A stretch of DNA of 64,000 nucleotides from a virus (IMGVR_UViG_3300006921_004083:59783-123782); one strand, 5' to 3'; shown: positions 7,361-40,658, counted from the stretch's first letter. The notes: generated from the letters alone by a model not told the origin. Numbers and translations: made by a program.

Positions 7361-7373
7361 ATTAAAGAAATAT

Positions 7374-7754: not shown

Positions 7755-7756
7755 AA

Positions 7757-9565: not shown

Positions 9566-9620
9566 AGCGCATTTACTTTTGAAAAAATATCATTAAAAAT
9601 ATTTATTAATAAATGATTTA

Positions 9621-13451: not shown

Positions 13452-13453
13452 TT

Positions 13454-18727: not shown

Positions 18728-18740
18728 TTAATAATTTATT

Positions 18741-19793: not shown

Positions 19794-19795
19794 TA

Positions 19796-22700: not shown

Positions 22701-23389
22701 GTACATCAACTCTTATTCCAGGAGTTACCCTATACTCAACACCTGAAGCTTGTATGCAAGCTAGTGGTTGTAACCTTATTGTAGGGTGTATGGATCCAGA
22801 TGCAATTAACTATAATCCACAAGCACAAGAACCCTGTTGGTTAAATTATGGTAACGATTGTTGTTTATTACCTTTAGGTGGTTGTACAGATATATCTGCC
22901 AATAACTATTGGCCCGCAGCAACATTCGATGATGGTTCATGTCACTATCATAATGGATGTCCTGATCCAACAGCGTCTAATCCATGTGTACCAACTAACT
23001 CTATGACTATTAATAGTAATATTATAAGTTGTACGGATTGTATGGGTAACCCACCAGCAACACAATATAATAATCCACTATACCCAAATGCGATAATTCC
23101 AGGAACGTTTGGTGACATTACTTGTTGTTATTTTGACCCAATAAATAATTTAAGTATAGGTTGTACTGACGTAAATGCGGTGAACTATGATCCTCTAGCA
23201 CAAGTAGACGATGGTAGTTGCAGTTATGTGACATTTTATGATGTGTATTGTTGTTTCCCAATCACACCAGGTTCAACATGTCAACAGTTTAGTACTACTA
23301 GTGTGAATGATTATAATCTTTTCTTGGCGGATCCTAGATGTGAGACCAACTTTGGGGATTGTACGAATAATAACTCAAATTGTGTGTAG
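19796..23389 (+). CDS. large Cys-rich virion protein with CBM-like domains and GCTD repeats
   Basis: Two galactose-binding-like sandwiches, a CBM5/12-like YNTGDVV..DGSLWYC motif and C-terminal GC(T/M)D..A.NY repeats; ends in TAG in frame with the next ORF. Confidence 0.6.
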   Translation: MEIIKKKISRGSLLGDRTNARRPVLDPEPLISNGIMPYACPDTNMSFDDCVTTILDPLYIPGMGPDWMEEFIDGPIIELFGEFISKIFVDDFSQGSQNWVVNTIDFPLVLYWNTTVPYVEDIGNNSLRIEIGGPGPINTNGYVILHTVNNYNLITGENYNISVKLSSNILSHINMVTNPGINQPSMLYVWASNVDTGTFEYGQFNENEVELFTSRGVVNTTFTVVDGGNYMFGISQYIDDTFGTPAQIGDFLIVDDFQVTKETSSVDTNSFIGVKRKILGFFKSFNIEFTPYNLHLYRYNITNYLLSQDAVDVDDINLGVYGTQEIDPNTGFQTGQYLIFSPPVGVIPFYYLGWNLYGAITNIQNDIVTNNGFLYCQGPDLGPWDGTNQNYNTGDVVEAGDGSLWYCNQTPDETCNTCAPEDACAWIPCINVVGNRPPVLNINFPLYQDIKDIGIYRDLLHPGIAEECSGSTKTLTQSYKCPVPWFTNSDGEVTFYDYETDSEVFVERKCCEDYSEYGFVWWKKKCYRDYGNKDQGQGLELFNFPYDVLFYGIGDNWVEFYEGNAMSPTESYVMAGAGGSMGTIEGVSGKRTLIYTPIISGLIDGETYIIKSKMVMKNYPSSTLANIMWGGTSTLDPNWGYLYFENFELGEALGFTNPISCINGGVTTVDFINGDYRLVTNNCNQATINIPISLAQGMDYRFTTRYVACTVPEVSQILTLPAQLNFKLFDPLGNMVIDEDIASGNIFDMDVDYTALLNGAYMMEFIVFNPAGSGTCVGGGSPCDNGNVPVSTYGFKLEHLSVEEKPWNWTTDEDVKVTPVKYWTSNSYDAADDVVEVELESEITMEGATSVSLRLICDVKEEIIVSPLEFDLVNTEISFKYYQKPNFLGCDETHFLSTIRNEYGAIENTTVPYVNTVIATDPQLPVIQGVESNADCDYTPSVLGWYCDLNYVLEMGPPTGDITIQGCLSTSTLIPGVTLYSTPEACMQASGCNLIVGCMDPDAINYNPQAQEPCWLNYGNDCCLLPLGGCTDISANNYWPAATFDDGSCHYHNGCPDPTASNPCVPTNSMTINSNIISCTDCMGNPPATQYNNPLYPNAIIPGTFGDITCCYFDPINNLSIGCTDVNAVNYDPLAQVDDGSCSYVTFYDVYCCFPITPGSTCQQFSTTSVNDYNLFLADPRCETNFGDCTNNNSNCV

Positions 23390-23392
23390 AAT

Positions 23393-26300: not shown

Positions 26301-26566
26301 GCACCATACCGACACCTTCACCTATAGGTGAAAATGTTATTACTCGTTTTGCAATACAAATGACAAATTGTTGTCCAGGATGTTTATATCCCGATATAAA
26401 AGAAGAATGGACTTTAGGTCATGTATTCCCTCCACAAATAGAAAATAATGTATTTATAGATAGAGGTCAGATATCTATTTTTGAAGACTACTATAGAATA
26501 ACAGAAGTTGATAGACTTGAAGATTTTGACCTTTACCAAGGAGGATTCTTTAATATAATAAGTTAA
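23393..26566 (+). CDS. large Cys-rich virion protein with a dockerin-like duplication and GCTD repeats
   Basis: Two C.G.H.H...G...YMAC..H motifs, two GDTNxDxIVNLDDL motifs, about seven tandem GCTD repeats, C-terminus VFIDRG...GGFFNII. Confidence 0.6.
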   Translation: MKIKNKIGCLDKKAINYDSTSDIACKNCCVSEKGQKTLQNLIERISPKNLKSLQSYSSYALGYLDNRPFFNYITQAEKYGLQIGCEGYHEHEFEGKTVYMACENHEPITNQKENTLSCEDYIEGVTENGIVIWSNITELEKQKDCCKKRSKEGYQWDDITRKCYLRKSDNKKIIGNHSVLSFINTVPVWYTQGAANEYANIIECTGTHTHDVNGRTGYMACSDHTTAESQFAPSCFNTETRVDGSLVFTNTNTTNTVMTNQACCQQWIQYSFMWNGEDCQPLENSLTWQCIDGIVTEVLDGSGYYQNFNDAITYCESSSYGELTYDCENNNCEVNPVGDGQYRGPNALTDCLIYCKDCNENPVCCDTMATNCDSKCQTASIHNNCGCDNSYCIYNVGNVQLRGTTNRSGSQLMARVGNPSLPGDTNCDGIVNLDDLFSVLDNWLQTGPNLPGDTNDDNIVNLDDLFSVLDNWLQTGPPCNSRDNTPQGTFTPTIVPNGCSDLCLTFDFQSIITQFDLNTNLNGTGIWRDFIDIQVPNYWSNVDPSSGVYNIFTLPDSNGFIQLYDSNNTNVGVASHQQSGIPSNFTYTLHWFDSGVLTEIVDPTTDTTVLPPNSYLIKIIDNNAINVDTGLPCEYSYNFAINNSNHFIMNTSIGGSLCAIWGCTDAAAANYEPTANAENNSCSYVFSQSVPGCTDPLACNYDSLATFDNGSCTYNCYGCTDPVALNFNTNATIPCNGNYGNYCDTPGPSNCCCEYHLMVYGCTDPYAQNYDPSADTDDGSCDYTIVGCTNPLANNFDPGATVDNGTCEIPGCTDDGTDLAFPGRPNGFLGTASNYDPNATINDDSCVYVDCVYGCTDPTSTNYDPDATCDDDSCYGGCCGVQDGIKGQEYVITGFTDSKLSDILWPGYSNASSVSEATTNPAMTDKYGVNPYYPLIKRVPSLGMNDGWTVINENLFTAYTINNIHYWDYSTIPTPSPIGENVITRFAIQMTNCCPGCLYPDIKEEWTLGHVFPPQIENNVFIDRGQISIFEDYYRITEVDRLEDFDLYQGGFFNIIS
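24652..24822 (+). repeat. 87-nt-period direct repeat encoding a dockerin-like pair
   Basis: Copies start at 24652 and 24739; the last ~57 nt of each (TATTGTTAATCTTGATGAT...ACAGGACC) are identical. Confidence 0.9.
25373..26020 (+). repeat. tandem GCTDPxAxNYDPxAxxDDGSC peptide repeats
   Basis: About seven degenerate copies in the translation; further copies at ~16180 and ~22780-23225. Confidence 0.85.
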
Positions 26567-26583: not shown

Positions 26584-27477
26584 ATGGCAACAGGTAATTA
26601 CGGAATAAAGAGACCAGCAGATGTACTTCCAGAGGACATAGACATCTTTTTACATTACACACCAAGTAGAGATACGGGTTTTGAAGATACGTTTGTAAAA
26701 TTAACCCCTAGCAATGAGTATATAAGACAATATACAAAACCTACAGAAGGGGCAGTAGGTATTGGGATATTAGAAGGTATGTATAACCTTTCCCTACCAC
26801 CAAGTATCTTTAATTCTAAAGGTATATATACAGTGGTGTTAAAACCTAGGGAAATAATAAAAGAAGTAGTTGATTGTGGAAACTTAGCGGCAATGCCCGA
26901 AGTAAAAGGAATTGTTATGGATCAAACTTTATTAGGTAGTGCTGGGATTAATGGAGGATTGGTTGGATATAGACTAGAATATTACGAAGAAGCAACAAAT
27001 AGAAAGATTCCAAACTTCTTTAGAATTGTAACATCTTCAAATTTATGTGAACCAGTAAATCAACAACTCTCTAATACAACACAAAAAGCAATAAGATATA
27101 ATTTTAACGACAATGGGAGTTTATTATTTCTTACCCTAACACCTAGTTCTGCACCAAACGTAAAACCTAATGCAGAACCATTCCTAGGAAGAACAGGACA
27201 AAAACTAAGTATAACAAACACATTCTTTAATCCAATATCAATAGAAATTGAAATAACAGAACATGATTTTGATACATTAGGGTATGGATTATTTGGTAAT
27301 CAGACTAAGTCTATACAAGACGGAATTTATACTATATATGACACAGATAATAACATCTATAGACAATATAACTTATATGAAATTAAAGATAATTTTGATG
27401 ATTCTTTATATGAGGTGAGACAACAAAGAAGCGACATAGACTTCACCAAAGATTTCAATAACATAAACGTATTATAA
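26584..27477 (+). CDS. putative virion (baseplate-associated) protein
   Basis: 297-aa ORF (MATGNYGIKRPADV...) translationally coupled to the next gene (TAATG). Confidence 0.55.
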   Translation: MATGNYGIKRPADVLPEDIDIFLHYTPSRDTGFEDTFVKLTPSNEYIRQYTKPTEGAVGIGILEGMYNLSLPPSIFNSKGIYTVVLKPREIIKEVVDCGNLAAMPEVKGIVMDQTLLGSAGINGGLVGYRLEYYEEATNRKIPNFFRIVTSSNLCEPVNQQLSNTTQKAIRYNFNDNGSLLFLTLTPSSAPNVKPNAEPFLGRTGQKLSITNTFFNPISIEIEITEHDFDTLGYGLFGNQTKSIQDGIYTIYDTDNNIYRQYNLYEIKDNFDDSLYEVRQQRSDIDFTKDFNNINVL

Positions 27478-30400
27478 TGGCGTACAAAAAAGTAATAGGT
27501 AATTATCAATCTAATTTTGATTTTTCTCCAGATCTAGTAGGATTTCAGATCACCGAGGGGAGTCCCTTAATGACGCTTACCAATTTCTATACAACACCAG
27601 TCCCATCGGCGAAAAGTAGTGTTTTTTATGATACTGAGGGGTTTTCCCAACCAGTTACACTAAGTGATCTTAACTTGACTACATCACAAGGTGCAGAATT
27701 ATTAAATAATAATCTAAATCTAGTGTTAAATTTGGATGAGTCTGATTTATTTCATTATACATTATTTGGTAGTTTGAGAGAACATATAAAAGCTTCGGTA
27801 AAGAAAATTATTATAAATTGGCCAGCTTCACTATTCATAAATAAAGTTAATATTAGTGGGTCCACAACATTTACCGCAATAAACTACATATACAATAGTG
27901 AAACTAACAGCTCAACGTTTAAGATACCGGCAGGAAATATAAGAAATAAATTTTTCATTAATCTCGATAATATTCCCAACACTTTCCAACAAGAACCAGG
28001 GAAAAAGTCAATGGCCTCAAGTTTTTATGATTATACCGTTCAATACCCAATTGCTAGTGCACAAACAATTACTAATTCTCCTGGTTATTATTCTCCTAAT
28101 CAAGAATTTAGAGTAATTGGTTTTACTGGTTTTTCCTCACAAGAAACAGGATATATTGGAATAAAAGTAGTAGGAAATCCATTTACAGGGGCCACTAACG
28201 GGGCAATAAGACAAAATTTCCATATAAAACCTCAGGTTAATATAAGGGAAAGATATTTTAATAGATTAAAAGGACTCGATAGATTCTTACTTAATAGAGA
28301 TTTTTACCCTATATACACTTCAGAGTTTACCGTACCAGTTAAAGGTGAAGATCAAACCTTTACAGAAATAAAGAAAAAATTTACTTGGCCAGTATCAGAC
28401 GGATATAATATAGATATAGACACTACCTTATATGGGGATTTTCTTTCATCACTTTTAGAGTTGGCCGATTCATATGATGACTACAAAACAGACTTAGTTG
28501 CCAGATTTTTTACCACAGACTCAATAAAAGAATTTGACACGGACGATAAAAGAGTAGAAAAACTTTTAAGAATTTACGGAAGAGAATTTGATGAGGTAAA
28601 AAGATATATTGATGGTATTGCGTTTGCTTCGAGAGTATCTTATGATAAAAATGATAATATTCCAGATAAGTTAATTAAGAATTTTGCACGTACACTTGGA
28701 TTCGAAACTCTAGATTTTGCAAATCAAGAGAATCTTCTCGAATCTTTCTTTGGTGGGACTAATACGAATGTATTTTCAGGAACTTCTATAGGTATGACAC
28801 CTGTAGAGTTTGATATTGAATTATGGCGAAGACTTGTATTAAATGCTGGGTATCTCTTCAGGGCAAAGGGAACAAGAAAAGTAATTGAGTTCTTTTTAAG
28901 ATTTATTGGGGCACCAGAGTCATTAATAGAGTTTAATGAATACGTTTATACGGTAAAAGAAAAATTAGATATAAATAAAGTTGAGACTACTTTAACTTAT
29001 TTAGATGCAAATAGAGGTGGAGAAGACGATGAAACGGCAGGAATCGACTTATCATACTACCCTATCGATAATGATGGATATCCTAAAGTATTACGTAATA
29101 CAGAAGAGTACTATTTCCAAATGCAGGGAGGGTGGTATAGAGAAACTAATTTTATTGGTGCTAATAATCCACATTTTGGACCTTATGATGGTGGGCAAGC
29201 ATATTTTAATAGATTTAGAAAATTTTCAGAGTCTTCCGGAGGAACCTTTACAATACCTTCAGTAGTTTCAGGTACTGTACCAGAAAATGAATTAGTGCCC
29301 GTATTAGTTTCTAATTCCGTAACTACTGATAATTTTAACTTTTTAACTGGTACCTTAGGGTATATTAATTCTTTACAAGGGGCAAGTCCTGGTTTAGGTT
29401 CGGCTTGGGCAACAGTAAGTGATGCTATAACTCAGGGACCCGCAGCGGTTTATGTTTTTGAACATATTGGAGAAAGTATACCAGCAGATAAACAAATATT
29501 GGCTAAAGCTCTTTACGACGCTGGTTATGCAGTATTAACCATAAGTAACTACGCAACTTCGTCACTTTACCCTATTAATAATACCTCAGTTCATGCGAGT
29601 GGAGTACCTTGGGGGTTTGAACAAAACCCATTTGTTGATCCAAGTAATCCACTAACCCAAGGATGGTCCAATACCCCATCCTTTAACACTATGGACGGTT
29701 TTGATATAGTGACAGCAGGGGGCGATGCAAATATATTATCTTATAATGAAACACCAAATAATGATAAAATTAACACCCTTTATTTATATAATGTAAATGG
29801 TGGTAGATGGGTACACTGTCAAAACCCTAACTTATATAATTCCTCACAATTATTTACTAATATTATGGATTTCTTAACCATGAGAAATGAAAATAATAGG
29901 TATTATTATGATTTTGACTGGTCTGAGTTTTATGAATCTAATGTTTTTGTAGGTAGTCCAGGCTTTGTTCTTTATCCACAAATTGATAATAAAAAATCTT
30001 GGGTAAATAATACAGGAACAACAATAAATGCGTACAGAGAATGGGGACTAACAGATTCCCAGGCGAGTTCTACCACCACTACTAGAGATACTAATTATTT
30101 TGTTGGGGATGATGAAAGGTTAGTATTAAATACGAAAATGGTAGACTCCCATCTTAACATCGCAAAGGCTATGGAAACCGACATGTACAACTATAATAAA
30201 ATGAGTGGTTTCCCGATTACTATAAAGTATGATTACAATCCAAACATACTTGAAAATCTGTGGCCAGTTCAGAGTACTGGAAGGGGTTATAATAGACAAA
30301 ACTTAGGTACTAATATATATTATGGGTCTTCTATGAGTGGATCAGGTTTTGCTGTGAGTGCGACTACATTTGCGCAGTATTTAGACAGAGTAAAAACACA

Positions 30401-31541
30401 ATTTATTAATGTTAAAAACAGAAAGACCATTGGTGGAGGAGGATTCGGATTCCAACCTAATTGGCCGGCATACCCTTTATTAAGAAATATTTTCGAGTCT
30501 TATGTGTCTGGAGGGACCTCTAGTACCGATAACGCTGGGGTAATTGTTCCACTTAATATCGGAAGTAACCAACTAAATTATCAAAAAATGTTAGGGTTTG
30601 TAAAAAAGATACAACCTTATTGGTCTAGACTTTTAGAACAATTTATACCCGCAACTACGATTATAGGGATGGGAACCAAATACTCTAATACTGTTTTTGA
30701 TAGACAAAAATTTGTTTATAGACATGGACAAAGATCAGTAATTGATATAGATTCTGAAGACCAATCAGAATTAAAAAGCCAATGGTATAAGAAATATAGA
30801 TTCATTTCTCAAGATATTGGACCTTGCGGAAACTCGACATACGCAGAACCACTTACTTTAAGAAATAATGATGGCTCAAATACTGCGCCAGGTGTTGGGA
30901 GTTTAGTTAGTGTTTTAACTACAGGAAAAGAGTACTATTTTAGAATAGGATTAAAATTTAATTCAGGAAGATTAGGTAGACAACCCAACCAACAAATATC
31001 TTATAATGGTGGGGGTTTAATTGGAGACCCATTAAACCAAGGAGGATGTGCCGGGGTTGGGGCAAATGGAATGTCTATGGGATATGCAGAAAGACAAGGA
31101 AGGGTGTATCTAAAAACCGCATCTTCGGGGAGTCAAGATATTATTATAAACGTAAATGGACCTGGATTTTACGATGTTAAGTTTACACCGATAGCGGGGG
31201 CAAACCAATATTTACAAATTAGTACAGACATCAATGGGTTAATAATTGAAAGTGTAAAGTTATATAATGTAACAGATTCTACTTATGTAGTTGATAATAT
31301 GGTAAGAAATGGTAACTTCACCGAAGGGCTAGAATATGTTAATTATGGTTCCGCGGATCAAAGTAGAATGAGATACTGGTCTGGTGTTAATGGAAGTGGG
31401 GCCCCTCCAGCAAATCACTCGAAGTGGTTAATAGAGGCCTCACCAATATATGATTGGCCAGGAACAGACGGTTCCGAGTCTGTAACTTTAGGTAATGATT
31501 GGTACTGCCAAGGAGTACAACCATGGTGTGGTACAAACTAA
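27477..31541 (+). CDS. baseplate wedge protein (T4 gp7 / P2 gpI-like) with insertions
   Basis: LLRIYGREFDEVKRYID, LIKNFARTLG, LWRRLVLNAGYLFRAKGTRKVIEFFL, LLEQFIPATT; C-terminal CBM-like segment. Confidence 0.65.
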   Translation: MAYKKVIGNYQSNFDFSPDLVGFQITEGSPLMTLTNFYTTPVPSAKSSVFYDTEGFSQPVTLSDLNLTTSQGAELLNNNLNLVLNLDESDLFHYTLFGSLREHIKASVKKIIINWPASLFINKVNISGSTTFTAINYIYNSETNSSTFKIPAGNIRNKFFINLDNIPNTFQQEPGKKSMASSFYDYTVQYPIASAQTITNSPGYYSPNQEFRVIGFTGFSSQETGYIGIKVVGNPFTGATNGAIRQNFHIKPQVNIRERYFNRLKGLDRFLLNRDFYPIYTSEFTVPVKGEDQTFTEIKKKFTWPVSDGYNIDIDTTLYGDFLSSLLELADSYDDYKTDLVARFFTTDSIKEFDTDDKRVEKLLRIYGREFDEVKRYIDGIAFASRVSYDKNDNIPDKLIKNFARTLGFETLDFANQENLLESFFGGTNTNVFSGTSIGMTPVEFDIELWRRLVLNAGYLFRAKGTRKVIEFFLRFIGAPESLIEFNEYVYTVKEKLDINKVETTLTYLDANRGGEDDETAGIDLSYYPIDNDGYPKVLRNTEEYYFQMQGGWYRETNFIGANNPHFGPYDGGQAYFNRFRKFSESSGGTFTIPSVVSGTVPENELVPVLVSNSVTTDNFNFLTGTLGYINSLQGASPGLGSAWATVSDAITQGPAAVYVFEHIGESIPADKQILAKALYDAGYAVLTISNYATSSLYPINNTSVHASGVPWGFEQNPFVDPSNPLTQGWSNTPSFNTMDGFDIVTAGGDANILSYNETPNNDKINTLYLYNVNGGRWVHCQNPNLYNSSQLFTNIMDFLTMRNENNRYYYDFDWSEFYESNVFVGSPGFVLYPQIDNKKSWVNNTGTTINAYREWGLTDSQASSTTTTRDTNYFVGDDERLVLNTKMVDSHLNIAKAMETDMYNYNKMSGFPITIKYDYNPNILENLWPVQSTGRGYNRQNLGTNIYYGSSMSGSGFAVSATTFAQYLDRVKTQFINVKNRKTIGGGGFGFQPNWPAYPLLRNIFESYVSGGTSSTDNAGVIVPLNIGSNQLNYQKMLGFVKKIQPYWSRLLEQFIPATTIIGMGTKYSNTVFDRQKFVYRHGQRSVIDIDSEDQSELKSQWYKKYRFISQDIGPCGNSTYAEPLTLRNNDGSNTAPGVGSLVSVLTTGKEYYFRIGLKFNSGRLGRQPNQQISYNGGGLIGDPLNQGGCAGVGANGMSMGYAERQGRVYLKTASSGSQDIIINVNGPGFYDVKFTPIAGANQYLQISTDINGLIIESVKLYNVTDSTYVVDNMVRNGNFTEGLEYVNYGSADQSRMRYWSGVNGSGAPPANHSKWLIEASPIYDWPGTDGSESVTLGNDWYCQGVQPWCGTN

Positions 31542-31552
31542 TAAATTAAAAT

Positions 31553-31873
31553 ATGTTAAAAAAAGGTAAATTAGATATAAATGTGACACTTACAACCAAC
31601 TCGACTGTAGTTGGTTACGAAAGATCACCAAATGAAGAAGTTTTAATGGAAAAACAAACTGCGGCTTATAAAAGTGGTAGTGGAACACTGGACAATAGAA
31701 TTAATAATGGTACATTAATACTAGGACAAAATATTGAAACTGATGGTGTGGTAGGTAGAAAGGATAAAAAACTATACGGCGGAAAATTAATGGGTATGAA
31801 AAGTGTGAATAACACAAATACTATTAGAAGAATAAAAGGAACAATAAATTCATCACAGAACTCAAATGGATAG
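31553..31873 (+). CDS. hypothetical protein
   Basis: 106-aa ORF with an A-rich leader, overlapping the next start. Confidence 0.55.
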   Translation: MLKKGKLDINVTLTTNSTVVGYERSPNEEVLMEKQTAAYKSGSGTLDNRINNGTLILGQNIETDGVVGRKDKKLYGGKLMGMKSVNNTNTIRRIKGTINSSQNSNG

Positions 31874-34127
31874 ATGTAGATATAAAACATTATTAAGAAA
31901 CTCGGCAAAATTAAAGAGTAATTCTCAGTATACTAATCAAAATACTAGTTACTTACCTTTAGATGTTTATACTTGCTATGACTATTTCCAACCACCATCA
32001 TTTACAATGAGTGGGGCGACTAAAATTAACCCTTATGGTGTATATGACTATAATGGAAGTCCTTACACAACACAAGGAATGTCCCATATTGGCTTAGGAC
32101 CTAGTGGATCAACACAAAACTCCGTATGGAATACGAGTCAATCGGGAGTAACATTAGAATATTACTTTCCTTATGAAAAAATGAGTGGTTATACCGGTAA
32201 GTTTAGGAGTTCGGTTTATAAATTTGATGATGAAAAAAATGGATTTAGTTACCCTCCTATCCACGAAAGATATTTTAAGTCATTTCCTCTTACACCTGAT
32301 TTGACTTGTGAGGCTCAAACTACCGCAACAACTTTTAGTGTGTTTTTTAGTATATCGGCCACTTCTGAAGGGTCAACACTTCCATCAGGTACCCATAAAC
32401 AGTCTTGGTATTGGTTTGGACAAGATACTACTCGTTCAGATGGAGCTGGGGGTCATCTTGAGCCGATATGGCCCGGATTTTATACGGCCTACACCCTAAC
32501 CAACTTTTTCAATAGTGTATATATTTCAACAGGTGGTACAATAGGAGGTGCAGGGACTACAGGAACAACATATGAATATACTAGAGTATATAAACAAGCA
32601 GTTAAAAACGGATGGATAATCCCAACAGGAAATACAAATGTAACCAATGCTGGGGTTACAGGTAACGCCGGATATTGGCAGAATGGGGAGTGTTATATGA
32701 CAGGAATAACCTGGAATATGGCAATCGGTGCAGGAAATAACGGACCAACAGGACAATTAAATTTATCAGGGGCTCCCCAGTTAATTAGTTCTAGTGGTGG
32801 ACCATATAGTGGTTTGTACACTGGTTTTGCTACTGGAAATGCCTATGTATATACCGCATGTTGCTCCAGTAAACTAATAGATAGTATTAGTAGTTCAGAA
32901 CTTAACACATCAAGAGGAGAAGGCCAACCAGAGGCAAGTAATAATTATTTAGTGAAAGGTTCTTTTGTGTATTCAGGGGATGGTGGAACAGAAGCTTGTT
33001 ATTTAACATCGGGAAACACATATGATACTTTAATAGATGACCCTAATAACAAAAATTTTGAAGGAGTTAAAGATAATTTTTATCATTATAATTTATATTA
33101 TCCTGAAAAAGATTTTAGTTTTATCGCAGTTTCTGACCCACCTAGACCAGTGATAAAATATGACCGTAATCTCCTTAATATTGAATCTAGTGAGGTTAGT
33201 GTAACGTCAGGGTCAACAACAGACATAGAATTTGTTGTAGAAAATTTACCAGTAACGAGTGAGGGACAATCGGTGTTTTATTTAAGTGAAGACCCAATTG
33301 GAGATATTACACTAAGTGTTAATGGGGTTGTATTAAAAAATAATTTTGAGTTTATACAAGATAAAAGAGAAGTAGAAATAAAAGTTATAGTAAAAGGAGG
33401 TAGTACAATTGATATTGAAACCAGTGATACTTTAGTTGCTGCGTATGTTAAAGGAAACGGAGTAAAGGGATTAATTACAGAGGGTGATACAGTACCTAGT
33501 ACCGGAGTTGTAACTGGGGCAACAACATTTTCCAGTGCCAACCAACTCTATAATAAGTTTAATTATAATTCAGGTACCACAACATTTGAGTATTATACGA
33601 ATCAACCGTTAAATGAGGCTAAAGAGAATGATTTGTCTAATTTAATTGTCTTAGTTAACGGAGTGAGACAAAAACCTAATAATGATTATTATCGTTCAAG
33701 AAGAAATAATAGATTAGTTATATTTAACCCGAATATTACTTTGGTTGCCGGAGATTCAGTTAATTTATTTTATCTAACAAATTTACAAGGTATTGAGAAT
33801 CAAAGTCTAGGTAGTACCCACAAACAAATAACTTGGGAAGTTGCGCCACAACCACAATCTAACCAAGGGTTTTTTGAAGTACAAGTGACAAATAGTGCAG
33901 ACACTACTTTCGTTGCAGCTTCAACATATAGTACAATAAAATATAAAGAAGGGATAGGTACCTATACAACCAGTATTGGACCGTTCAATACTCTAAATCA
34001 AAAGTATTTATATAGGGTAGTTAATAATCGTAATTATATTGGGATAAGCGGATCTAGTATTACGACCACAGCAACTAGTATAACTAATAAGTTCGATACG
34101 GATAGTCCGTACTTATTAAGTTACTAG
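31866..34127 (+). CDS. putative tail/baseplate fibre-associated protein
   Basis: Two repeats of the V.VNGV.(L/Q)K...(E/D)(F/Y) beta-domain common in phage fibre and wedge proteins; Thr/Gly-rich. Confidence 0.6.
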   Translation: MDRCRYKTLLRNSAKLKSNSQYTNQNTSYLPLDVYTCYDYFQPPSFTMSGATKINPYGVYDYNGSPYTTQGMSHIGLGPSGSTQNSVWNTSQSGVTLEYYFPYEKMSGYTGKFRSSVYKFDDEKNGFSYPPIHERYFKSFPLTPDLTCEAQTTATTFSVFFSISATSEGSTLPSGTHKQSWYWFGQDTTRSDGAGGHLEPIWPGFYTAYTLTNFFNSVYISTGGTIGGAGTTGTTYEYTRVYKQAVKNGWIIPTGNTNVTNAGVTGNAGYWQNGECYMTGITWNMAIGAGNNGPTGQLNLSGAPQLISSSGGPYSGLYTGFATGNAYVYTACCSSKLIDSISSSELNTSRGEGQPEASNNYLVKGSFVYSGDGGTEACYLTSGNTYDTLIDDPNNKNFEGVKDNFYHYNLYYPEKDFSFIAVSDPPRPVIKYDRNLLNIESSEVSVTSGSTTDIEFVVENLPVTSEGQSVFYLSEDPIGDITLSVNGVVLKNNFEFIQDKREVEIKVIVKGGSTIDIETSDTLVAAYVKGNGVKGLITEGDTVPSTGVVTGATTFSSANQLYNKFNYNSGTTTFEYYTNQPLNEAKENDLSNLIVLVNGVRQKPNNDYYRSRRNNRLVIFNPNITLVAGDSVNLFYLTNLQGIENQSLGSTHKQITWEVAPQPQSNQGFFEVQVTNSADTTFVAASTYSTIKYKEGIGTYTTSIGPFNTLNQKYLYRVVNNRNYIGISGSSITTTATSITNKFDTDSPYLLSY

Positions 34128-34142
34128 AAATATTGTAAGTTA

Positions 34143-34150
34143 ATATTTAT
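34143..34150 (+). promoter_or_regulatory. ATATTTAT putative late promoter
   Basis: In the 63-nt gap before the 795-aa gene. Confidence 0.5.
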
Positions 34151-34190
34151 AATAAAATGAAAGATAATATATTAAAGAAAATAAATTAAA

Positions 34191-36578
34191 ATGGGATATA
34201 TACAAAAAGATAATGTTGCATATGTAAGTGCAAAACTAACAGATTACGGTAGAAGACAATTAGCCATAGGACAATTAAATTTTTCTTACTGGGGTTTTGG
34301 TGATTCAGAAATAGACTACGGTAGCTTTGATAATACATATTCTTGGTCTGATGTTGTTGATTTAGGCAACTTGGAAATTTTAAGACCAGCCGATAACCCA
34401 GCAGGTATTAAATACCCACTACTCAGAATCGCCGGTAATAGTGGTAGTACTTACAGTGCCGTAAACAATGTAGCTCTTAATGAAACAGTTATTAATAATC
34501 AAGCATTACTAAGAGGGTTTTTTACTGGGGAAACAAAAGATGCTACAAATTATCCAGAACGTAAGTATGATTATTCACTTAGGACAGCTACTACGTACAC
34601 AAAAGCGGTAGGAAAACTTAACCTAGCTAATATTGTGAGGGCTGGTAGTAATCTTACTCAAAATCCAGTACCTGGAAGTACAGGAATAGACATCAATAAG
34701 GGACAAACTGGAGATATCACAGATGTAAGTGTAAACGGGGTAGAGCCAGAGGCAGGAGATTTTATGTTGTTACTACCGAACGAGTTTTATGGAGCGGCAG
34801 GAGAAGCGGAAGGTGTTATGGATCCAGGACCAGGTCCAGGTTATGTAGACCAAAGAAACCCACAAGCATATTTGTGGTATAGAATACAGGAGGTAACAGG
34901 TACATTAGCCGGTAATAACCTAAAAGTTACAGTAGATAGGTCAATACCTAATTTTACGGGAGGTACTACACATCAATACAGAGACTCTAGTGTATTTTTC
35001 TATGATGGGAGTGACCCAATCAACACATATTATGGAACAGGAACTACTATACCTTATTGGAATGAATTAAGTTTAACTTTTGATAGTAATTGTGATGTTT
35101 CAGTAACAGATGTGAAAGTTTGGAATATGAACATTCCGTGGACACAGACGGTCGCGGGAATAAGTGCAACAACTCATGGAGACTATGCTACCTATGGGTC
35201 AACAGGTTACACTGGTACAAAAGAATATCTTAATTACACAGTGCCAACAGATTCAGAATCATACGGAGGGATAGTTGATGATTACAGACAAAAATCTATA
35301 GCTGTTATACACTATAGTAACAATTCAATTTCTAATTTCTATGGAGAAGGGTTCTACTGGGATGCTGACGGAAGTAACAACTTCCAGTTAACAATGCCGA
35401 CAGTAATGTATCACTATACTGGTAATACAAGTATTGGGTTATTATTAACAGGAGAGACTAGAACAACTCCTCGTAAAATGACATCCGTATATAATTCTAA
35501 TAGTGAGATAGAATACTATCAATTACATACTTCAGGTGGTACTAGTGGGATCGACACACCATCTTATACTGAACCAACAAGTGTTGGTAAAATCTTCCCG
35601 GAATTAAAAATGGCTGTTATTGACGATGAAGAAATTGTTGCTTCACTATCCTATAAATCAAATAGGAATTGGACATTACCACAACTACAAGCTAGTTACT
35701 ACAGTCCTTCAGGTTCAACTTCATTAATGTCATCAGGGGACCAGTTATGGATTTCGTACTTGTTCACAACAACTAGTGGATACACAACTGGATTACACTG
35801 TAACAAATACACGTTCTTATCAGAAAACTCAACCAATTGTACAGATTGTGACGGTAATGGTAAAAACGTAAAAGTTAAGTTCCCTTACGGAAGTTTACCT
35901 TTTATGAGACGAGGAGGAATTAGTTCAACTTTAGGTACACCTGGACCTAACGACGAATATGAGTATATAGGGTGGGACGCTACGTCATTTGATATATTAG
36001 TACAAAAAGTACAAAATAATACACAACCAGACCCAGCTGCTTGGAGAAGAATACCAGTGGCGGTCAATTCAGTAGGAACATCAATCTATAATACACACAA
36101 TGGTAAAAATTGGGTTGACTATGAAATACTATATAACTCAGAATTTATAATAACCAATGAATATTATGACGCAGTAACAGGAAATTATGCACCTGATGGA
36201 GGTAACTATAGTTTATGTGATTGGATAAGTATGCCAACCTTAACAGAGTTAACAACTTCTCCTAATATTCCGGGAGGTAGTGCTAACACAACACTTACAT
36301 TTGGTGACGAAAGATTTTTCTTTGGTAATGTAGATACTAATATTAAAGCAACGGTATTTAGAAGTACCTTCTCATTCACTGCTGGTCCTAGTGAGTTTAA
36401 TACTTCACAAAACCCAACTTTTGGAACTGGTGCGGCAGTACCATCACACAATGTTAGAGTTGCAGAAGTGGCGGTGTATGATTCTAATTATAATGAGGTA
36501 ATAATGGGGAAAATAAGTAATCCGATCGAAAAAACGTTTGGTGATCAATTTACTCTAGTAATGGGATTAGATTTTTAG
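34191..36578 (+). CDS. tail collar/fibre-like protein (gpH N-terminal / DUF3751-like halves at the two ends)
   Basis: N-terminal KLTDYGRRQLA..FSYWGFGDSEIDY; C-terminal VRVAEVAVYD...GKISNPIEK. Confidence 0.55.
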   Translation: MGYIQKDNVAYVSAKLTDYGRRQLAIGQLNFSYWGFGDSEIDYGSFDNTYSWSDVVDLGNLEILRPADNPAGIKYPLLRIAGNSGSTYSAVNNVALNETVINNQALLRGFFTGETKDATNYPERKYDYSLRTATTYTKAVGKLNLANIVRAGSNLTQNPVPGSTGIDINKGQTGDITDVSVNGVEPEAGDFMLLLPNEFYGAAGEAEGVMDPGPGPGYVDQRNPQAYLWYRIQEVTGTLAGNNLKVTVDRSIPNFTGGTTHQYRDSSVFFYDGSDPINTYYGTGTTIPYWNELSLTFDSNCDVSVTDVKVWNMNIPWTQTVAGISATTHGDYATYGSTGYTGTKEYLNYTVPTDSESYGGIVDDYRQKSIAVIHYSNNSISNFYGEGFYWDADGSNNFQLTMPTVMYHYTGNTSIGLLLTGETRTTPRKMTSVYNSNSEIEYYQLHTSGGTSGIDTPSYTEPTSVGKIFPELKMAVIDDEEIVASLSYKSNRNWTLPQLQASYYSPSGSTSLMSSGDQLWISYLFTTTSGYTTGLHCNKYTFLSENSTNCTDCDGNGKNVKVKFPYGSLPFMRRGGISSTLGTPGPNDEYEYIGWDATSFDILVQKVQNNTQPDPAAWRRIPVAVNSVGTSIYNTHNGKNWVDYEILYNSEFIITNEYYDAVTGNYAPDGGNYSLCDWISMPTLTELTTSPNIPGGSANTTLTFGDERFFFGNVDTNIKATVFRSTFSFTAGPSEFNTSQNPTFGTGAAVPSHNVRVAEVAVYDSNYNEVIMGKISNPIEKTFGDQFTLVMGLDF

Positions 36579-36580
36579 TA

Positions 36581-37066
36581 ATGGGATTCGCAACAGGAAA
36601 TACTAATAGTTTTAATGTGTATCTAACACCTATGGCTCGTAAAAGATTATATACGGGTAAAGGAGGGGACATTAGTTTTAAGTATTTTAGTTTACACGAT
36701 AGTGATATAAATTACACTAAATCCGGAACTACAGCTCCATTGAGTGGGACCCCCGCAGGACTTTACACTAAAGTGCCTGACCTAAGAGGAGTAACCCAAA
36801 CCATTGGTATTAATGGGTGTGCAGTTGAAGGGTTAGAAGATTTTATTATTAGAGATAATGATGAATTAAGTCCTTGTCCTCCTGGTCTGAGTAGAAATAT
36901 TAATGGAGATTGTGTAGAGACAAAATTTATTAGACAAAGGTCAAGACAAATAACAAAAAGAAGAATAAATAATAATTTTACAACATCTTCCTCTTCAGTA
37001 AGAGTTGGCGCTGGCACTTCAGGTGGGGCGACTTCCAGCGGTGGAGGAGGTGGTGGAGGTTACTAA
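36581..37066 (+). CDS. short paralogue of the 34191 N-terminal domain with a Gly/Ser tail
   Basis: YLTPMARKRL...FKYFSLHDSDINY; ends SSGGGGGGGY. Confidence 0.6.
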   Translation: MGFATGNTNSFNVYLTPMARKRLYTGKGGDISFKYFSLHDSDINYTKSGTTAPLSGTPAGLYTKVPDLRGVTQTIGINGCAVEGLEDFIIRDNDELSPCPPGLSRNINGDCVETKFIRQRSRQITKRRINNNFTTSSSSVRVGAGTSGGATSSGGGGGGGY

Positions 37067-37091
37067 TAAAAATAAATAAAAAATTAGATAA

Positions 37092-38663
37092 ATGGGATTT
37101 TTACCATCAGGAAGTACAACAAACGCAGTTACTATGAACGTAAAACTTACTAAAAAGGGTAGGGAAAAATTAGTTTATGGTACTGGTACTAATATTAGAT
37201 ATTTTACATTACACGATGAAGGAATTAACTATACTTCTACAGTTAAACCAGTGAGAGGAGAAGTTCCAGCAGTTGCAGGGTCTTCTAACACAAATATTGC
37301 CATTGCAGATGGAAAAGGTTTTAGGGATGTAATACTAAAAGACGTACCGTCAAACATGAATGACCTTATTAGACAAACAGGGGTAAAGAAAGTTAAGGCT
37401 AGACCTTCATCTAAAGGATGGGGTTCAGAATTAGGAATAAGTGCTGATACGGCTGGATATAATAAATTGAATGTAACTGTTAATTTAGATTACGCACTTA
37501 ATTTTATGTATTGGCAAGCACAACAGATTCAAACCCAACAAACACTTGACTATAGTATATTTTATGAAACAAATAATCACCCAGCTTCTTCTATTAGAGA
37601 CGGATTTTTGAATTTCTTAGATAATATGGTTGTAGATACCGATGATGAAAATAGCCAAGTAACTTTAGATACACAAAAAGATGAAATTGATATTTGTTTT
37701 TTAGGGGAGAATGACAGGATTTTAACTACTAGTACTAACAAATATAGTTCTGACTTACAAAAATATATTTTAATGTCCAAAGAGATGTTATACAATAGTG
37801 GAGGGAGTCCGATCAACGTAAGTTATAATGAAAATTCTATTGATAGTCCATTTAAGTTTGCATTCTCTTCAGGGAGAGAACTTAACCAATATACTGAATC
37901 AATTAATAAACTAACAGATAATCCACCACAACAGAAACAAACTGGTAAGTTGTTTGGTGGGGCAGGAACTTGGGGAGTGACTTTAGGTATAACAGATTTT
38001 GTTTATGGAATTAGAAGAAGAGATTGGTTTAATGACACAATAAACGGAACATTTGATTCGGGAATAGTCCAAGGGAATGGAAGTCAATCACCAGTCATAA
38101 GTTATTTTGATATGGTGAGCTTCATGGATGGTAAAAGTGCAATTAATACCGACAATGATTTTATTGAGGTAGATCCAGGAAGTTATGAGGGATTAAACGC
38201 TCCAGTTGCCGTCACAAACAACGCTACGGTAGTACCTCTTTATCCAGGTATTTCTATTGTTACTAATCATAATAGAGCGTTTTACCCAAGAGTTAGAACG
38301 GGGAGTTTTCCGCTAGCTATTCCATTGTTAGAAATGTGTGCATTTGGTACTCAACCAATAGAAGTACAAAATGACATTATAGAATCTTTTTTTAGAAAAA
38401 CAAGTATTTCACCTTATCAGTTTACTAATAAAGATGGTTCGGATAATTATAGAACTACCCTTACTTTAGTGGCTAAACCAAGAAATATTAAAACATCTAG
38501 ATCTAATCCAGTAAAAGATGCGGAGATAACGATAACCTTTAAGTATAATAAATCAGTTGCGGAAGATAGAACGATTGATTGGAGTCTTTCACAGTTTAAT
38601 AGTAACTACAATTATAATAGTTTTGTAGTAAAAGAAAGATTTGATAATTCGATAGCTCACTAA
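37092..38663 (+). CDS. virion protein sharing the same paralogous N-terminal domain
   Basis: KLTKKGREKL...IRYFTLHDEGINY. Confidence 0.6.
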   Translation: MGFLPSGSTTNAVTMNVKLTKKGREKLVYGTGTNIRYFTLHDEGINYTSTVKPVRGEVPAVAGSSNTNIAIADGKGFRDVILKDVPSNMNDLIRQTGVKKVKARPSSKGWGSELGISADTAGYNKLNVTVNLDYALNFMYWQAQQIQTQQTLDYSIFYETNNHPASSIRDGFLNFLDNMVVDTDDENSQVTLDTQKDEIDICFLGENDRILTTSTNKYSSDLQKYILMSKEMLYNSGGSPINVSYNENSIDSPFKFAFSSGRELNQYTESINKLTDNPPQQKQTGKLFGGAGTWGVTLGITDFVYGIRRRDWFNDTINGTFDSGIVQGNGSQSPVISYFDMVSFMDGKSAINTDNDFIEVDPGSYEGLNAPVAVTNNATVVPLYPGISIVTNHNRAFYPRVRTGSFPLAIPLLEMCAFGTQPIEVQNDIIESFFRKTSISPYQFTNKDGSDNYRTTLTLVAKPRNIKTSRSNPVKDAEITITFKYNKSVAEDRTIDWSLSQFNSNYNYNSFVVKERFDNSIAH

Positions 38664-38673
38664 AAATAAAATT

Positions 38674-39237
38674 ATGGCAATACTAAATAAAATACCAACA
38701 TTTAATTCAGGAAATTATAAAAATCTTAATGCTTATTTTGATGAGTCCACTACAAGAGGACAAGTACAATATAAGTTACACTCTAAGGTAGAGGTAACGG
38801 CAGAAGACGGAGTTTATACTACAATTTTAGGGAATCTAACTAGTGATAATCCTTATGCTGATTATACTTCGGCGTATGTTAAAACATTTATTAACCTTCC
38901 ATTTAAGAACAATGTAGAATATGACCCCAGTCTAATAGAGATAAAATCAACTACGGAGGGAACAATAACTAACCAAACTCCACCAAATGAGAGTAACCCC
39001 GTATATATGGCACAACCTACATATGTTGCGGCAATGCCTGGTAGAGACACATTAGTATTAGACCCTAAAACTAAAATGTTAACAAACACTAGGGTGGCAC
39101 AAGGAGGTATAACAAATAATGGAACAAGAAATAACAACCAAAATCAAACTTCAAACTCAGGAACAGTAAGACAAAACACTACCATGGGAAGTAGAAGTAC
39201 CGGAGGTTCATCAATGGGATCTTCAGGAGGATATTAA
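38674..39237 (+). CDS. hypothetical (probable virion) protein with a low-complexity tail
   Basis: 187 aa; Asn/Ser/Gly-rich tail ending GSSGGY. Confidence 0.55.
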   Translation: MAILNKIPTFNSGNYKNLNAYFDESTTRGQVQYKLHSKVEVTAEDGVYTTILGNLTSDNPYADYTSAYVKTFINLPFKNNVEYDPSLIEIKSTTEGTITNQTPPNESNPVYMAQPTYVAAMPGRDTLVLDPKTKMLTNTRVAQGGITNNGTRNNNQNQTSNSGTVRQNTTMGSRSTGGSSMGSSGGY

Positions 39238-39248
39238 AATAAAAAACT

Positions 39249-40658
39249 ATGGCAATCAATACAGGATTTTTCAAACAAGTAGAGGATGGTTCCTCAGTAA
39301 TAAAACCAATAACAGTTCATACTAATAGTGTTACCAATAGTGGTACTGCTTGTAAATATTATGTGGCAGATAGGAGAAATTTAACTAACTCACAGAATAA
39401 TATATTCATGACGATGAACTTACCTCTTACACCTACTCAACAAACAGTATTTCAAGGAAATTTTGCAACAGGAACTAGTTATAATTTTTCGGGAACTAGT
39501 GGATTTAATCAAAATGTAATTATTTATACACCGATCACGGGAACAAGTTATGGGGAGTTAGTTGTAGGGCATTCTATACATATGAAAGTACCAGTTCAGT
39601 CAGCAGCGACAACATTTGGTCCTGTAGCAACCACTACTTGTGGAGTAATTCCTTGTGTACAAACACTAGATATATATGGGTCTTATGAATACCAAGGAGG
39701 ATACCAAAATAGTTTCGATAACTTAACATCGGAAAGTAGTATTAACGCGGTAGAGTACGGACAACCAATATATAATATCAATAACGAACTTACCAATTAT
39801 AACCCATATAAAAGTAATGTCGTATTCTTATTTTCAGATTTTGTAAGAAGACCAAATAATGACAGTTCAAAGTCTTGGGCAACACAATCAACAAATGCTT
39901 TAATAAACACTAATAAAGTTTTTAAGGACGGTAAAGATACGTTTAATTATGAATCACTTCCTTTAACAGGAAGAGATAAAATAGATGTTCCAGTTGGATT
40001 ATGTATGTTAGACGCTGGATTTTGTGCCATTACTCACCCTTACATAGTTAATATTATGGCATTAACTGCAGGGACTGTAACAGGAGCAGGTTGGGTAACA
40101 CCTTCTGATGGTACTTATTCAGGACCAGGGAATATACAATCTGATAATGGGGCTTCAGGAGATGCAGTAGGGGTGGCTTGGTCAAATGCGAATAGTGCAG
40201 ATGCGTATGGAGAAACTAACTTTTTACCTCTTTTACCTATTGGTGGTGCAACTGGGGTTTCCCCATGGGTACCAGGACCAATACTTCCGACAGGATGGAG
40301 CAATCAAGGAGATAGTGGAACACCATTTACTGCTGTTTATTTTACAGGTGGTACAACTAATGGGGGTACGGCAGACCAAATTACAGCAGTGTCAGCATCA
40401 ACTTCTTTTAGAACAGTTAGTACGGACTACATCCAAAGCATAACCTGTGTAGCGGAGGCGGGATCATGGGGAACCTCCACTAACCCAACATGGGTAGAGG
40501 AATATTCTGAATCTGGATCTAATAATGCGGGTGTGTATATAACTAAAATTGGACTATGGGACGATAATTATAATTTATTGGGAGTGGCGGTACCAGATGT
40601 ACCAATCTTAAAAACACAAACACAATATTTAACAGCAACCCTTAACTTAACTAGATAA
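39249..40658 (+). CDS. virion protein with the C-terminal collar-like half domain
   Basis: STNPTW...VYITKIGLWDDNYNLLGVAVPDVPILK, matching the C-terminus of the 34191 protein. Confidence 0.55.
   Translation: MAINTGFFKQVEDGSSVIKPITVHTNSVTNSGTACKYYVADRRNLTNSQNNIFMTMNLPLTPTQQTVFQGNFATGTSYNFSGTSGFNQNVIIYTPITGTSYGELVVGHSIHMKVPVQSAATTFGPVATTTCGVIPCVQTLDIYGSYEYQGGYQNSFDNLTSESSINAVEYGQPIYNINNELTNYNPYKSNVVFLFSDFVRRPNNDSSKSWATQSTNALINTNKVFKDGKDTFNYESLPLTGRDKIDVPVGLCMLDAGFCAITHPYIVNIMALTAGTVTGAGWVTPSDGTYSGPGNIQSDNGASGDAVGVAWSNANSADAYGETNFLPLLPIGGATGVSPWVPGPILPTGWSNQGDSGTPFTAVYFTGGTTNGGTADQITAVSASTSFRTVSTDYIQSITCVAEAGSWGTSTNPTWVEEYSESGSNNAGVYITKIGLWDDNYNLLGVAVPDVPILKTQTQYLTATLNLTR

Follow-up and report, generated by a model that had tools for sequence, protein, structure and literature searches.

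A viral DNA stretch of 64,000 nucleotides (IMGVR_UViG_3300006921_004083:59783-123782), referred to here as the window, encodes two large proteins in which the tetrapeptide [ST][GA]xT (Ser or Thr, Gly or Ala, any residue, Thr) is strongly enriched. The enrichment is real for both, the products of the open reading frames (ORFs) starting at window positions 31866 and 34191; it recurs in sheath and fibre proteins of the same phage and in its relatives, and is absent from every part of one related partial genome. We tentatively read the motif as a turn-borne O-glycosylation sequon recognized by a phage-encoded enzyme, an explanation to which we give close to, though short of, an even chance and in which the modification itself is predicted.

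The window is the final 64 kb (59783-123782) of a 123,782-bp viral contig, G000, which belongs to an uncultured, aquatic T4-like myovirus. Since complete relatives span 288-380 kb and CheckV places the completeness of the contig at 35%, G000 is a fragment of a jumbo phage.

Enrichment of [ST][GA]xT in proteins of the window

The motif was counted in the 48 translated plus-strand ORFs of the window, the expectation being taken from 2000 shuffles of each protein. The proteins concerned are the following (window coordinates).

9621..26566, plus strand: giant proteins of 1276, 1757, 350, 1197 and 1057 amino acids (aa), similar in Ser/Thr/Gly content to the enriched proteins and used as internal controls
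27477..31541, plus strand: 1354-aa protein, weakly enriched, with 7 motif sites (residues 127, 194, 237, 587, 846, 961 and 1011)
31866..34127, plus strand: 753-aa protein of the distal tail/baseplate module, with 15 motif sites (residues 49, 80, 93, 107, 153, 207, 222, 232, 254, 279, 382, 448, 550, 569 and 677)
34191..36578, plus strand: 795-aa protein of a very large uncharacterised phage family, with 13 motif sites (residues 84, 112, 132, 256, 283, 325, 338, 410, 420, 448, 507, 529 and 697)
36581..37066, plus strand: 161-aa protein, not enriched, with 2 motif sites
37092..38663, plus strand: 523-aa protein, not enriched, with 2 motif sites
39249..40658, plus strand: 469-aa protein, not significant alone, with 4 motif sites

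ORF 31866 carries 15 sites against 2.45 expected (z 8.2, Poisson p 6.6e-8) and ORF 34191 carries 13 against 2.41 (z 7.2, Poisson p 1.8e-6), with no shuffle reaching either count. The original prediction, made by eye, had put these totals at about 15 and 13, which is exact, and its rough expectation of 2-3 sites per protein agrees with the shuffles. It had also credited four neighbouring proteins with several motifs each; this stands weakly for ORF 27477 (7 versus 2.3, p about 0.008) and fails for ORFs 36581 (2 versus 0.7), 37092 (2 versus 0.9) and 39249 (4 versus 2.0, p 0.13), none of which is significant alone. Orthologues in loci L005 and L006, which are not independent of the window proteins, carry 8 versus 2.8 and 6 versus 2.9 sites for 27477 (21 versus 8.0 when summed with it) and 4 versus 1.7 and 5 versus 1.5 for 39249 (13 versus 5.3 when summed). 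The giant proteins stand at expectation, both those that had been singled out as poor in the motif (9621, 2 versus 2.2; 19796, 1 versus 1.65) and the remainder (13454, 2 versus 3.6; the 350-aa protein, 1 versus 0.45; 23393, 3 versus 1.8).

The excess in ORFs 31866 and 34191 persists when residues are shuffled inside blocks of 20 to 100. The signal lies at the protein level, as the DNA pattern falls in frame 0 for 71 of 72 occurrences and synonymous codons vary like background; a DNA-level motif or DNA repeat is rejected on these grounds, and the sites are dispersed rather than tandemly repeated, just as inspection had indicated. The two proteins share no detectable similarity (best E 2.3), with remote homology still conceivable.

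Enriched proteins beyond the window

A count against composition-shuffled controls, proposed with the original prediction, yielded 122 sites versus 62.2 expected over the 89 ORFs of G000 as a whole. Beyond the window, the features of interest are the following (G000 coordinates).

739-12319, minus strand: sugar and glycosyltransferase cluster (locus L001), just outside the window, adjoining the motif-rich 1109-aa protein
12431-15760: 1109-aa protein, 17 sites versus 3.9, adjoining the sugar and glycosyltransferase cluster
33024-35825 and 35851-39321 (loci L002 and L003): two neighbouring tail-sheath paralogues (933 and 1156 aa), in which the N-terminal or inserted regions are very large
Also in G000: 401-aa protein with a Peptidase_S74 (endosialidase chaperone) domain, 5 sites versus 0.7

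Some sites of the 1109-aa protein overlap within short Thr-rich runs such as TATTGTVTATTGTT. The 401-aa protein is presumably a fibre because of its Peptidase_S74 domain. Among the sheath paralogues, the 1156-aa protein is clearly motif-rich (14 versus 3.5; 5 versus 2.5 in the 933-aa protein), and all 14 of its sites lie in residues 179-803, with none in residues 881-1155, the conserved core that aligns to residues 362-655 of T4 gp18. The inserted domains make up the outer surface of the sheath in gp18 structures. The sheath protein of a related genome, G011, has all 11 of its sites within residues 119-570; the enriched set of that genome includes a tail fibre and the sheath, its gp6-like wedge, terminator-like proteins and polymerase being flat, as are the replication proteins of G000.

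BLASTP detected no similarity in any of the 15 pairs formed by the six enriched G000 proteins, in which the motif thus appears, as judged from these comparisons, to have been acquired convergently. Motif sites lie nearer to indel-prone alignment columns than other Ser/Thr residues do (median 2 versus 4 columns), with p-values that are inflated by the relatedness of the sequences. On the choice between surface loops and buried turns of one repeated fold, posed with the original prediction, the sheath topology, this nearness to indels and the missing similarity between proteins bear indirectly. The control counts were flat for 25 structural proteins of T4 (16 versus 18.8), the T4 long tail fibre proteins gp34-37 (11 versus 8.8) and 12 proteins of cyanophage P-RSM4 (33 versus 26.1), so the excess is not general to myovirus tails or fibres.

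Specificity and residue context of the motif

In a scan of 24,000 three-residue patterns, TGxT (26 versus 4.7, p 9e-12) and SGxT (23 versus 3.8, p 2e-11) came out on top, with the third-best pattern at p 6e-5. The proteins scanned had been selected by the motif, and the out-of-sample proof is the same excess in proteins that the original prediction never saw; the remainder of the G000 genome has 11 TGxT versus 15.7 and 22 SGxT versus 14.0. Pooled over the six proteins, [ST]GxT occurs 54 times versus 9.8 (z 14.6) and [ST]AxT 17 times versus 5.2 (z 5.2). In the same pool, neither [ND]GxT (8 versus 7.3, z 0.3) nor [ST]Gx[VI] (14 versus 11.9, z 0.6) is enriched. The words [ST][GA]xS, [GA][ST]xT and Tx[ST][GA] are flat as well, which makes the signal directional. 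Two known glycosylation words are equally flat, the N-x(not P)-[ST] sequon (77 versus 78.1, z -0.1) and the Bacteroidota word D-[ST]-[AILVMT] (22 versus 20.8, z 0.3), and [ST][GA]S, DGY, DTG and [AST]TP range in z between -1.7 and 0.3. GxT alone reaches 103 versus 54 and GxTGxT 5 versus 0.5; Gx[ST][GA], which overlaps [ST][GA]xT in part, is moderately enriched (z 4.3).

Residue context was compiled over 16 enriched proteins of three genomes (G000, G011 and G009). Ser or Thr precedes GxT in 177 of 274 cases, and Thr ends [ST]Gx in 177 of 379 (4.1-fold), Ser at the same position standing at 0.9-fold. His at +3 is also favoured 4.2-fold, like Thr, on only 11 occurrences. Position -1 favours Val, Leu, Trp and Met and position +4 aromatics, Lys and Arg are depleted around the motif, x is never Pro, and Asp at -1 stands at 0.1-fold. 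Across 219 sites the hydrophobic fraction is 0.42 at -3, 0.55 at -1 and 0.43 at +4, with a background of 0.34, the charged fraction at -1 is 0.03, and turn-formers occur at +5. Written out with its flanks, the core reads hydrophobic-[Ser/Thr]-Gly(or Ala)-x-Thr-hydrophobic, and the signal needs both hydroxyl residues.

A role of [ST]-Gly as an anti-deamidation replacement for Asn-Gly or Asp-Gly was considered and rejected, as no wholesale swap is seen: relative to expectation, [ND]G is at 0.92-0.93 in the enriched proteins of G000 and G011 but at 0.94-1.12 in other proteins of these genomes.

Homologue families of the two enriched proteins

Twenty-two metagenomic homologues of ORF 31866 were found, and 18 (52-85% identity) were aligned with the window protein. 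All 19 sequences carry 10-18 sites versus 2.5-5.1 expected, and several sites are kept in 17-19 of the 19, those at residues 80, 93, 107 and 677 in every one. At conserved sites Ser interchanges with Thr and Gly with Ala, x is free, and Thr at +3 is fixed.

ORF 34191 belongs to a far larger family, with more than 961 homologues by word-index search and 2079 representative clusters at E up to 0.001 by exhaustive search, on contigs of up to about 380 kb from many waters. The excess holds in 14 close homologues (149 versus 38.3) and in 106 distant ones at 30-38% identity (1245 versus 213.3). The best 150 of the 2079 representatives total 1051 versus 217.2, with 106 enriched at least 3-fold and 28 below 2-fold. 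The family alignment has 97 motif columns, of which 30 are singletons and four are well kept (reference residues 112, 161, 283 and 529). Gene order is conserved in 80 viral loci, running from a structural block through the 34191 homologue, a protein of about 400 aa, a RuvC-like protein, primase and exonuclease to SbcD and SbcC, and the structural ORFs upstream of the homologue are mostly 3-6-fold enriched.

Turnover of sites and a motif-free relative

Between motif-rich genomes, 0.17-0.33 of sites are retained versus 0.07-0.14 expected from the conservation of non-motif Ser/Thr, Gly/Ala and Thr, or 1.6-2.7 times the prediction, and density stays several-fold above expectation despite the turnover. 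Counts in the 34191 family are bimodal: among 112 full-length representatives, 22 have 0-1 sites and 2 have 2 sites, with a broad peak at 5-10. The 31 motif-poor members (at most 3 sites) fall in 19 separate clades of a FastTree tree in which parsimony places the rich state at the midpoint root, the number of clades being a rough figure that takes no account of branch support; in a second tree, of 67 loci and with better support, low-ratio lineages occupy at least five places. Motif-rich members of the family have 1.3-fold the Thr and 0.74-0.76-fold the Lys and Glu of motif-poor ones; in the latter, Thr, Ser, Gly and Ala are scarcer overall, and Lys, Glu, Asp and Asn more abundant.

The clearest case of absence is G001 (187 kb, 53% complete), with 49 sites versus 46.4 over 159 ORFs and no enrichment anywhere, set against 272 versus 86.6 in its sister lineage G011. 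Over 73 reciprocal-best orthologue pairs, G011 has 181 sites versus 49.1 and G001 25 versus 24.7; the sheath pair, 73% identical, has 11 and 2 sites, respectively. At conserved sites G001 keeps the Gly and loses hydroxyls (TGGT to NGTN, TGLT to DGLM, SGTT to EGVV and TGAT to NGAT). Among its other genes, loci L087-L089 encode leucine-rich-repeat proteins, a PARP-like domain, an Acb1-like 2H phosphoesterase, a glutamate-receptor-like channel protein and RNA repair genes (Tpt1, RNA ligases and an HD domain).

Sugar genes and glycosyltransferases

A search for glycosyltransferase and sugar-pathway genes, which the original prediction had recommended, located two or more glycosyltransferases and a pathway for amino and acetamidino sugars, all just beyond the window. 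Cluster L001 encodes a PseC/LegC-family aminotransferase, a WbuX N-acetyl-sugar amidotransferase and an AglZ/HisF2 acetamidino-modification protein (above the NCBIfam cut-off), together with HisH, a formyltransferase, a 4,6-dehydratase, two proteins without a family match, a dUTPase and an exonuclease. From these family matches, the cluster is a predicted acetamidino and formyl amino-sugar pathway. Its 517-aa protein is a double GT2 glycosyltransferase with Glyco_tranf_2_5 (1.1e-29) and Glycos_transf_2 (6.6e-18) domains, and a 397-aa protein has weak GT4/GT1 matches below Pfam cut-offs and a PHROG glycosyltransferase match at 1.1e-38. A flippase, polymerase or initiating phosphoglycosyl transferase was not found among the Pfam matches listed for the clusters, in which many ORFs are without a family match.

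The PF00535 family (GT2) is present in every one of the 8 complete motif-rich records. Of the 16 partial ones, 10 contain it; these are the 10 with a completeness of 42% or more, and the 6 at 39% or less all lack it. All 18 motif-rich records of at least 42% completeness therefore contain it. It occurs in none of five low-ratio records, all of them fragments 22-53% complete. A Glyco_tranf_2_5-type enzyme is found in all four records examined (G000, G011, G021 and G009), and over its first 230 residues the 517-aa enzyme is 46-50% identical to its counterparts in the latter three. In G011 the orthologue stands upstream of the 34191 homologue at a distance of about 107 kb. No longer contig turned up for the G001 lineage when one was sought, and a search for a complete motif-poor genome with three motif-free representatives as queries returned only motif-rich relatives at 25-44% identity for P0222 and no relatives for P0229 and P0252.

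The surrounding cassettes vary. That of G011 (locus L273, 1-19511) encodes GT2, GT4, GT6 and GT11 glycosyltransferases, a GDP-mannose 4,6-dehydratase, an FkbM methyltransferase and two sulfotransferases, a combination that suggests a fucosylated, methylated and sulfated glycan; a motif-rich tail fibre gene lies about 8 kb away. GT6 and GT11 are families of blood-group-type transferases. The G009 cassette has a UDP-glucose dehydrogenase and further GT2 genes. A dUTPase gene lies beside the glycosyltransferase gene in G000 and G009, and IMPDH-like and PhoH genes lie near it in G011 and G009. Literature matches listed for Glyco_tranf_2_5 (PF13712) include Acinetobacter lipooligosaccharide loci and none on protein glycosylation.

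A proposed turn-borne sequon and its alternatives

We read the observed enrichment, specificity, distribution and turnover of the motif, together with the observed presence of sugar genes, as traces of a glycosylation sequon. The motif would form a tight turn, the simplest form being a two-residue beta-hairpin tipped by Gly-x, in which residues -1 and +4 would pack together and the hydroxyls at 0 and +3 would lie side by side on the opposite, exposed face. Such turns would have been acquired independently in the outer tail, that is, in the outer region of the sheath, in fibres and in distal baseplate-module proteins including 31866 and 34191. A phage-encoded cytoplasmic glycosyltransferase, for which the Glyco_tranf_2_5-type enzyme is the candidate, would transfer a sugar to one of the two hydroxyls, more probably to that of the invariant Thr at +3, and the lineage-variable enzymes of the neighbouring cassette would extend the glycan. 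A trans-acting reader is favoured over fold constraints because both hydroxyls are needed, the motif is convergent, density is kept through turnover, and the distribution is all-or-none with whole-genome loss; glycosylation would be the likeliest chemistry because the recurring glycosyltransferase adjoins fibre genes. The original prediction had proposed a convergently acquired tag for a modifying enzyme or a decorating protein. The part of it that concerns a trans-acting factor fits the lack of similarity in all 15 protein pairs, the density maintained under turnover, the all-or-none pattern and the motif-free G001; the part that names a phage modifying enzyme has candidates in the sugar and glycosyltransferase genes, and the exchange of Ser/Thr for Asn/Asp beside a constant Gly fits a structural reading.

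Several points weigh against a glycosylation sequon. We infer both the modification at these sites and the identity of the writer enzyme. The flanks are read as strand, tight turn, strand, with surface exposure and hairpin geometry derived from sequence statistics alone. ORFs 31866 and 34191 have no match among 50,697 GenBank phage records and thus no cultured relative. No glycosyltransferase gene, the 517-aa enzyme included, is found in the contigs of motif-free G001 and low-ratio G002, but both end about 35 kb short of the glycosyltransferase position in G011, so that the absence there says nothing. The sugar genes of G000 may serve DNA modification instead of protein: phage glycosyltransferase clusters modify DNA according to the available part of one preprint (bioRxiv 10.1101/2023.12.21.572611), a ThyA-family gene is present in all three complete relatives, and Tet_JBP was found in none of five records, with control genomes silent too. 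Among motif-rich loci, the ratio of the 34191 homologue does not follow that of the upstream proteins (Spearman 0.14, p 0.28, n=61), and their densities agree in sign in only 7 of 14 sister contrasts. As density shows no such co-variation, a coordinated signal rests on the pattern of presence and absence, above all on G001. Motif-rich members are richer in Thr, Ser, Gly and Ala, so a broader shift in surface chemistry is involved. Finally, motif-poor relatives keep the Gly and often have Asn or Asp at position 0, the equivalence of Asx-turns and ST-turns; the motif is accordingly built on an ordinary turn, and a structural explanation stays live.

Under that structural explanation, which we consider possible but rather doubtful, no enzyme reads the motif, which would be the preferred tight-turn connector of the clade, selected for hydroxyl-rich, low-charge surfaces (for example, for solubility, low stickiness or stability); position 0 would form an ST-turn, Gly would occupy the turn itself, and the following strand would start with a beta-branched Thr. 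The replacements TGGT to NGTN, TGLT to DGLM and TGAT to NGAT in motif-poor relatives are what it predicts, the hydrophobic residues at -3, -1 and +4 and the turn-formers at +5 fit strand-turn-strand, and the compositional shift (1.3-fold Thr, 0.74-0.76-fold Lys and Glu), the positional conservation of some sites in the 31866 and 34191 alignments and the lack of co-variation between proteins of motif-rich genomes also agree with it. It fares poorly with the specificity of the word, since the equivalent turn words [ND]GxT (z 0.3) and [ST]Gx[VI] (z 0.6) are flat where [ST]GxT reaches z 14.6 and the excess remains about 5-fold after correction for each protein's own composition. The excess is moreover missing from the tails and fibres of T4 and a cyanophage, 28 of 150 representatives and every G001 orthologue keep the same folds without it, the equally Thr/Gly-rich giants of the same virion are likewise flat, and bimodal counts with many switches are hard to obtain from fold constraints.

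A tag for some other trans-acting factor seems unlikely. Candidates are Ser/Thr phosphorylation or acylation, an assembly chaperone, a decoration protein bound to the hydroxyl pair, or an environmental or host ligand bound to turn arrays, all of which would account equally for convergence, turnover at constant density, all-or-none distribution and the absence of the motif from the whole of G001. No kinase or other Ser/Thr-modifying enzyme was found in family scans of G000, of 105 mid-size G001 ORFs and of the G011 and G009 clusters, a weak negative given that most genes are without annotation; the one candidate writer found to recur is the glycosyltransferase cluster. An origin in chance, local composition or hidden repeats is scarcely credible: the motif was picked post hoc, three of the six proteins originally named are not significant alone and a few sites overlap in Thr-rich runs, but block shuffles hold, the two leaders of the pattern scan are separated from the third by p 9e-12 and 2e-11 against 6e-5, the excess replicates in unseen proteins and genomes with flat controls, and the enriched G000 proteins lack similarity and vary in codon usage, so that for ORFs 31866 and 34191 this explanation is refuted by the shuffles, the scan and the out-of-sample replication.

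Extended to the whole clade, the sequon would belong to a phage-encoded cytoplasmic O-glycosylation system, with one conserved initiating Glyco_tranf_2_5-type glycosyltransferase and hypervariable cassettes that extend the glycan (acetamidino and formyl amino sugars in G000; enzymes for fucose, methyl and sulfate groups in a relative). These uncultured aquatic jumbo phages, a very large group, would carry a lineage-specific glycan coat on sheath and fibres, switched off a dozen or more times, after which the sequons would decay. This wider picture we regard as conceivable, though somewhat less than probable.

Comparison with known systems

Freeman et al., writing in Cell Host Microbe in 2023, reportedly found that mycobacteriophage virions are glycosylated by phage-encoded glycosyltransferases. 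Those phages are siphoviruses of Actinobacteria, and the proteins modified are reported to be capsid and tail-tube subunits; we know of no short dispersed sequon in that system. The likeness lies in a tailed phage with glycosyltransferases of its own and, on that model, cytoplasmic decoration of virion proteins. The present case differs in concerning the outer parts of sheaths, fibres and proteins of the distal baseplate module as candidates, all from an uncultured aquatic myovirus clade, in offering a defined tetrapeptide, and in being known from genes alone. No description of TGxT or SGxT as a sequon occurs among the literature matches listed, from a search in which Freeman et al. 2023 was not included.

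Three further systems offer partial parallels. In exosporium collagen-like proteins of Bacillus and Clostridioides (BclA; SgtA with BclA3), Thr is O-glycosylated in Gly-x-Thr repeats, which matches the G-x-T part of the word; those are long collagen-like arrays, whereas here dispersed single turns need a preceding Ser/Thr, and the two are likened by word, not by kinship of enzymes. The general O-glycosylation system of Bacteroidota, which recognizes D-[ST]-[AILVMT] and acts on exported proteins in the periplasm, likewise has a short sequon with a hydroxyl acceptor, but its word is flat here and Asp is nearly excluded from position -1 of the motif (0.1-fold). Autotransporter heptosyltransferases read a strand-loop-strand motif, and POFUT and EOGT act on EGF and TSR domains; such fold-dependent enzymes act on folded substrates with a short word in a turn context, often with Gly, and may resemble the proposed system in mechanism only.

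Among viruses, a parallel is the chlorovirus major capsid protein, described in the available part of the source as glycosylated by virus-encoded machinery, independently of host secretory pathways, at sites other than canonical Asn-x-Ser/Thr and with lineage-specific glycans on a common core (PMC5408694). These features would be shared with the system proposed here; chloroviruses infect eukaryotes and carry an N-linkage to Asn on the capsid, unlike the two hydroxyls and tail proteins considered here (PMC5408694). An Acinetobacter phage (PMC8402811) was rejected as a parallel, since host-derived lipid-linked glycans on a cystovirus are involved. DNA-hypermodifying clusters, as far as the available part of the preprint goes, also combine several phage sugar and glycosyltransferase genes, some beside structural genes, but those making 5hmC glycans need a cytosine methyltransferase and a TET-like dioxygenase, and their target is DNA, which would not explain a protein motif (bioRxiv 10.1101/2023.12.21.572611).

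Gene context

Other features of the window are the following (window coordinates).

7374..9565, plus strand: gp25-like and gp6-like baseplate wedge genes (PHROG baseplate wedge subunits), which open the module; no motif sites versus 0.1 and 0.6 expected
34191-34370, 36581-36760 and 37092-37271, plus strand: common N-terminal module, from an N-terminal alignment
47173-48000 and 61464-62282: two DNA methyltransferase genes, far from the glycosyltransferase cluster

The window also encodes SbcCD, primase, a RuvC-like resolvase, ribonucleotide reductase, DnaB, a UvsX-like protein and a sigma factor. Upstream of it, G000 has, besides the two sheath paralogues, a gp19-like tube protein, baseplate hub proteins and a family-B DNA polymerase; major capsid, portal and terminase genes were not recognised across the 124 kb of the contig. 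The N-terminal module common to the 795-, 161- and 523-aa proteins is about 50 aa long (MGF...KLT..GR..L..G...Y....DS.I.Y) and may serve as a shared attachment domain. The 1057-aa giant (23393-26566), not motif-enriched, has Cys-rich stretches and a DUF3721 match at residues 74-105 (E 1.2e-6). For ORF 31866 no Pfam or PHROG family and no relative in PDB was found. More broadly, the only Pfam match obtained with ORFs 27477, 31866 and 34191 and the 1109-aa protein was to PhiCb5_coat, below threshold; PHROGs gave nothing at E up to 1, PDB profile searches no match, and the ESM Atlas only uncharacterised viral clusters.

Implications

The all-or-none pattern of the motif is a natural experiment for seeking the writer enzyme by comparative genomics. 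To our knowledge, mycobacteriophages are the only tailed phages in which glycosylation of the virion has been demonstrated, and we know of no sequon for it. Should the motif be unmodified, it would still be unusual, as a four-residue turn word convergently selected in unrelated virion proteins and dropped wholesale in some lineages. If instead it is an O-glycosylation sequon, then sequence alone would predict the sites of glycans on the tails of a very large uncultured clade, and would give a handle on how such phages mask or tune their adsorption apparatus, on the purpose of their large and variable sugar cassettes, and on how a cytoplasmic glycosyltransferase is aimed at folded proteins.

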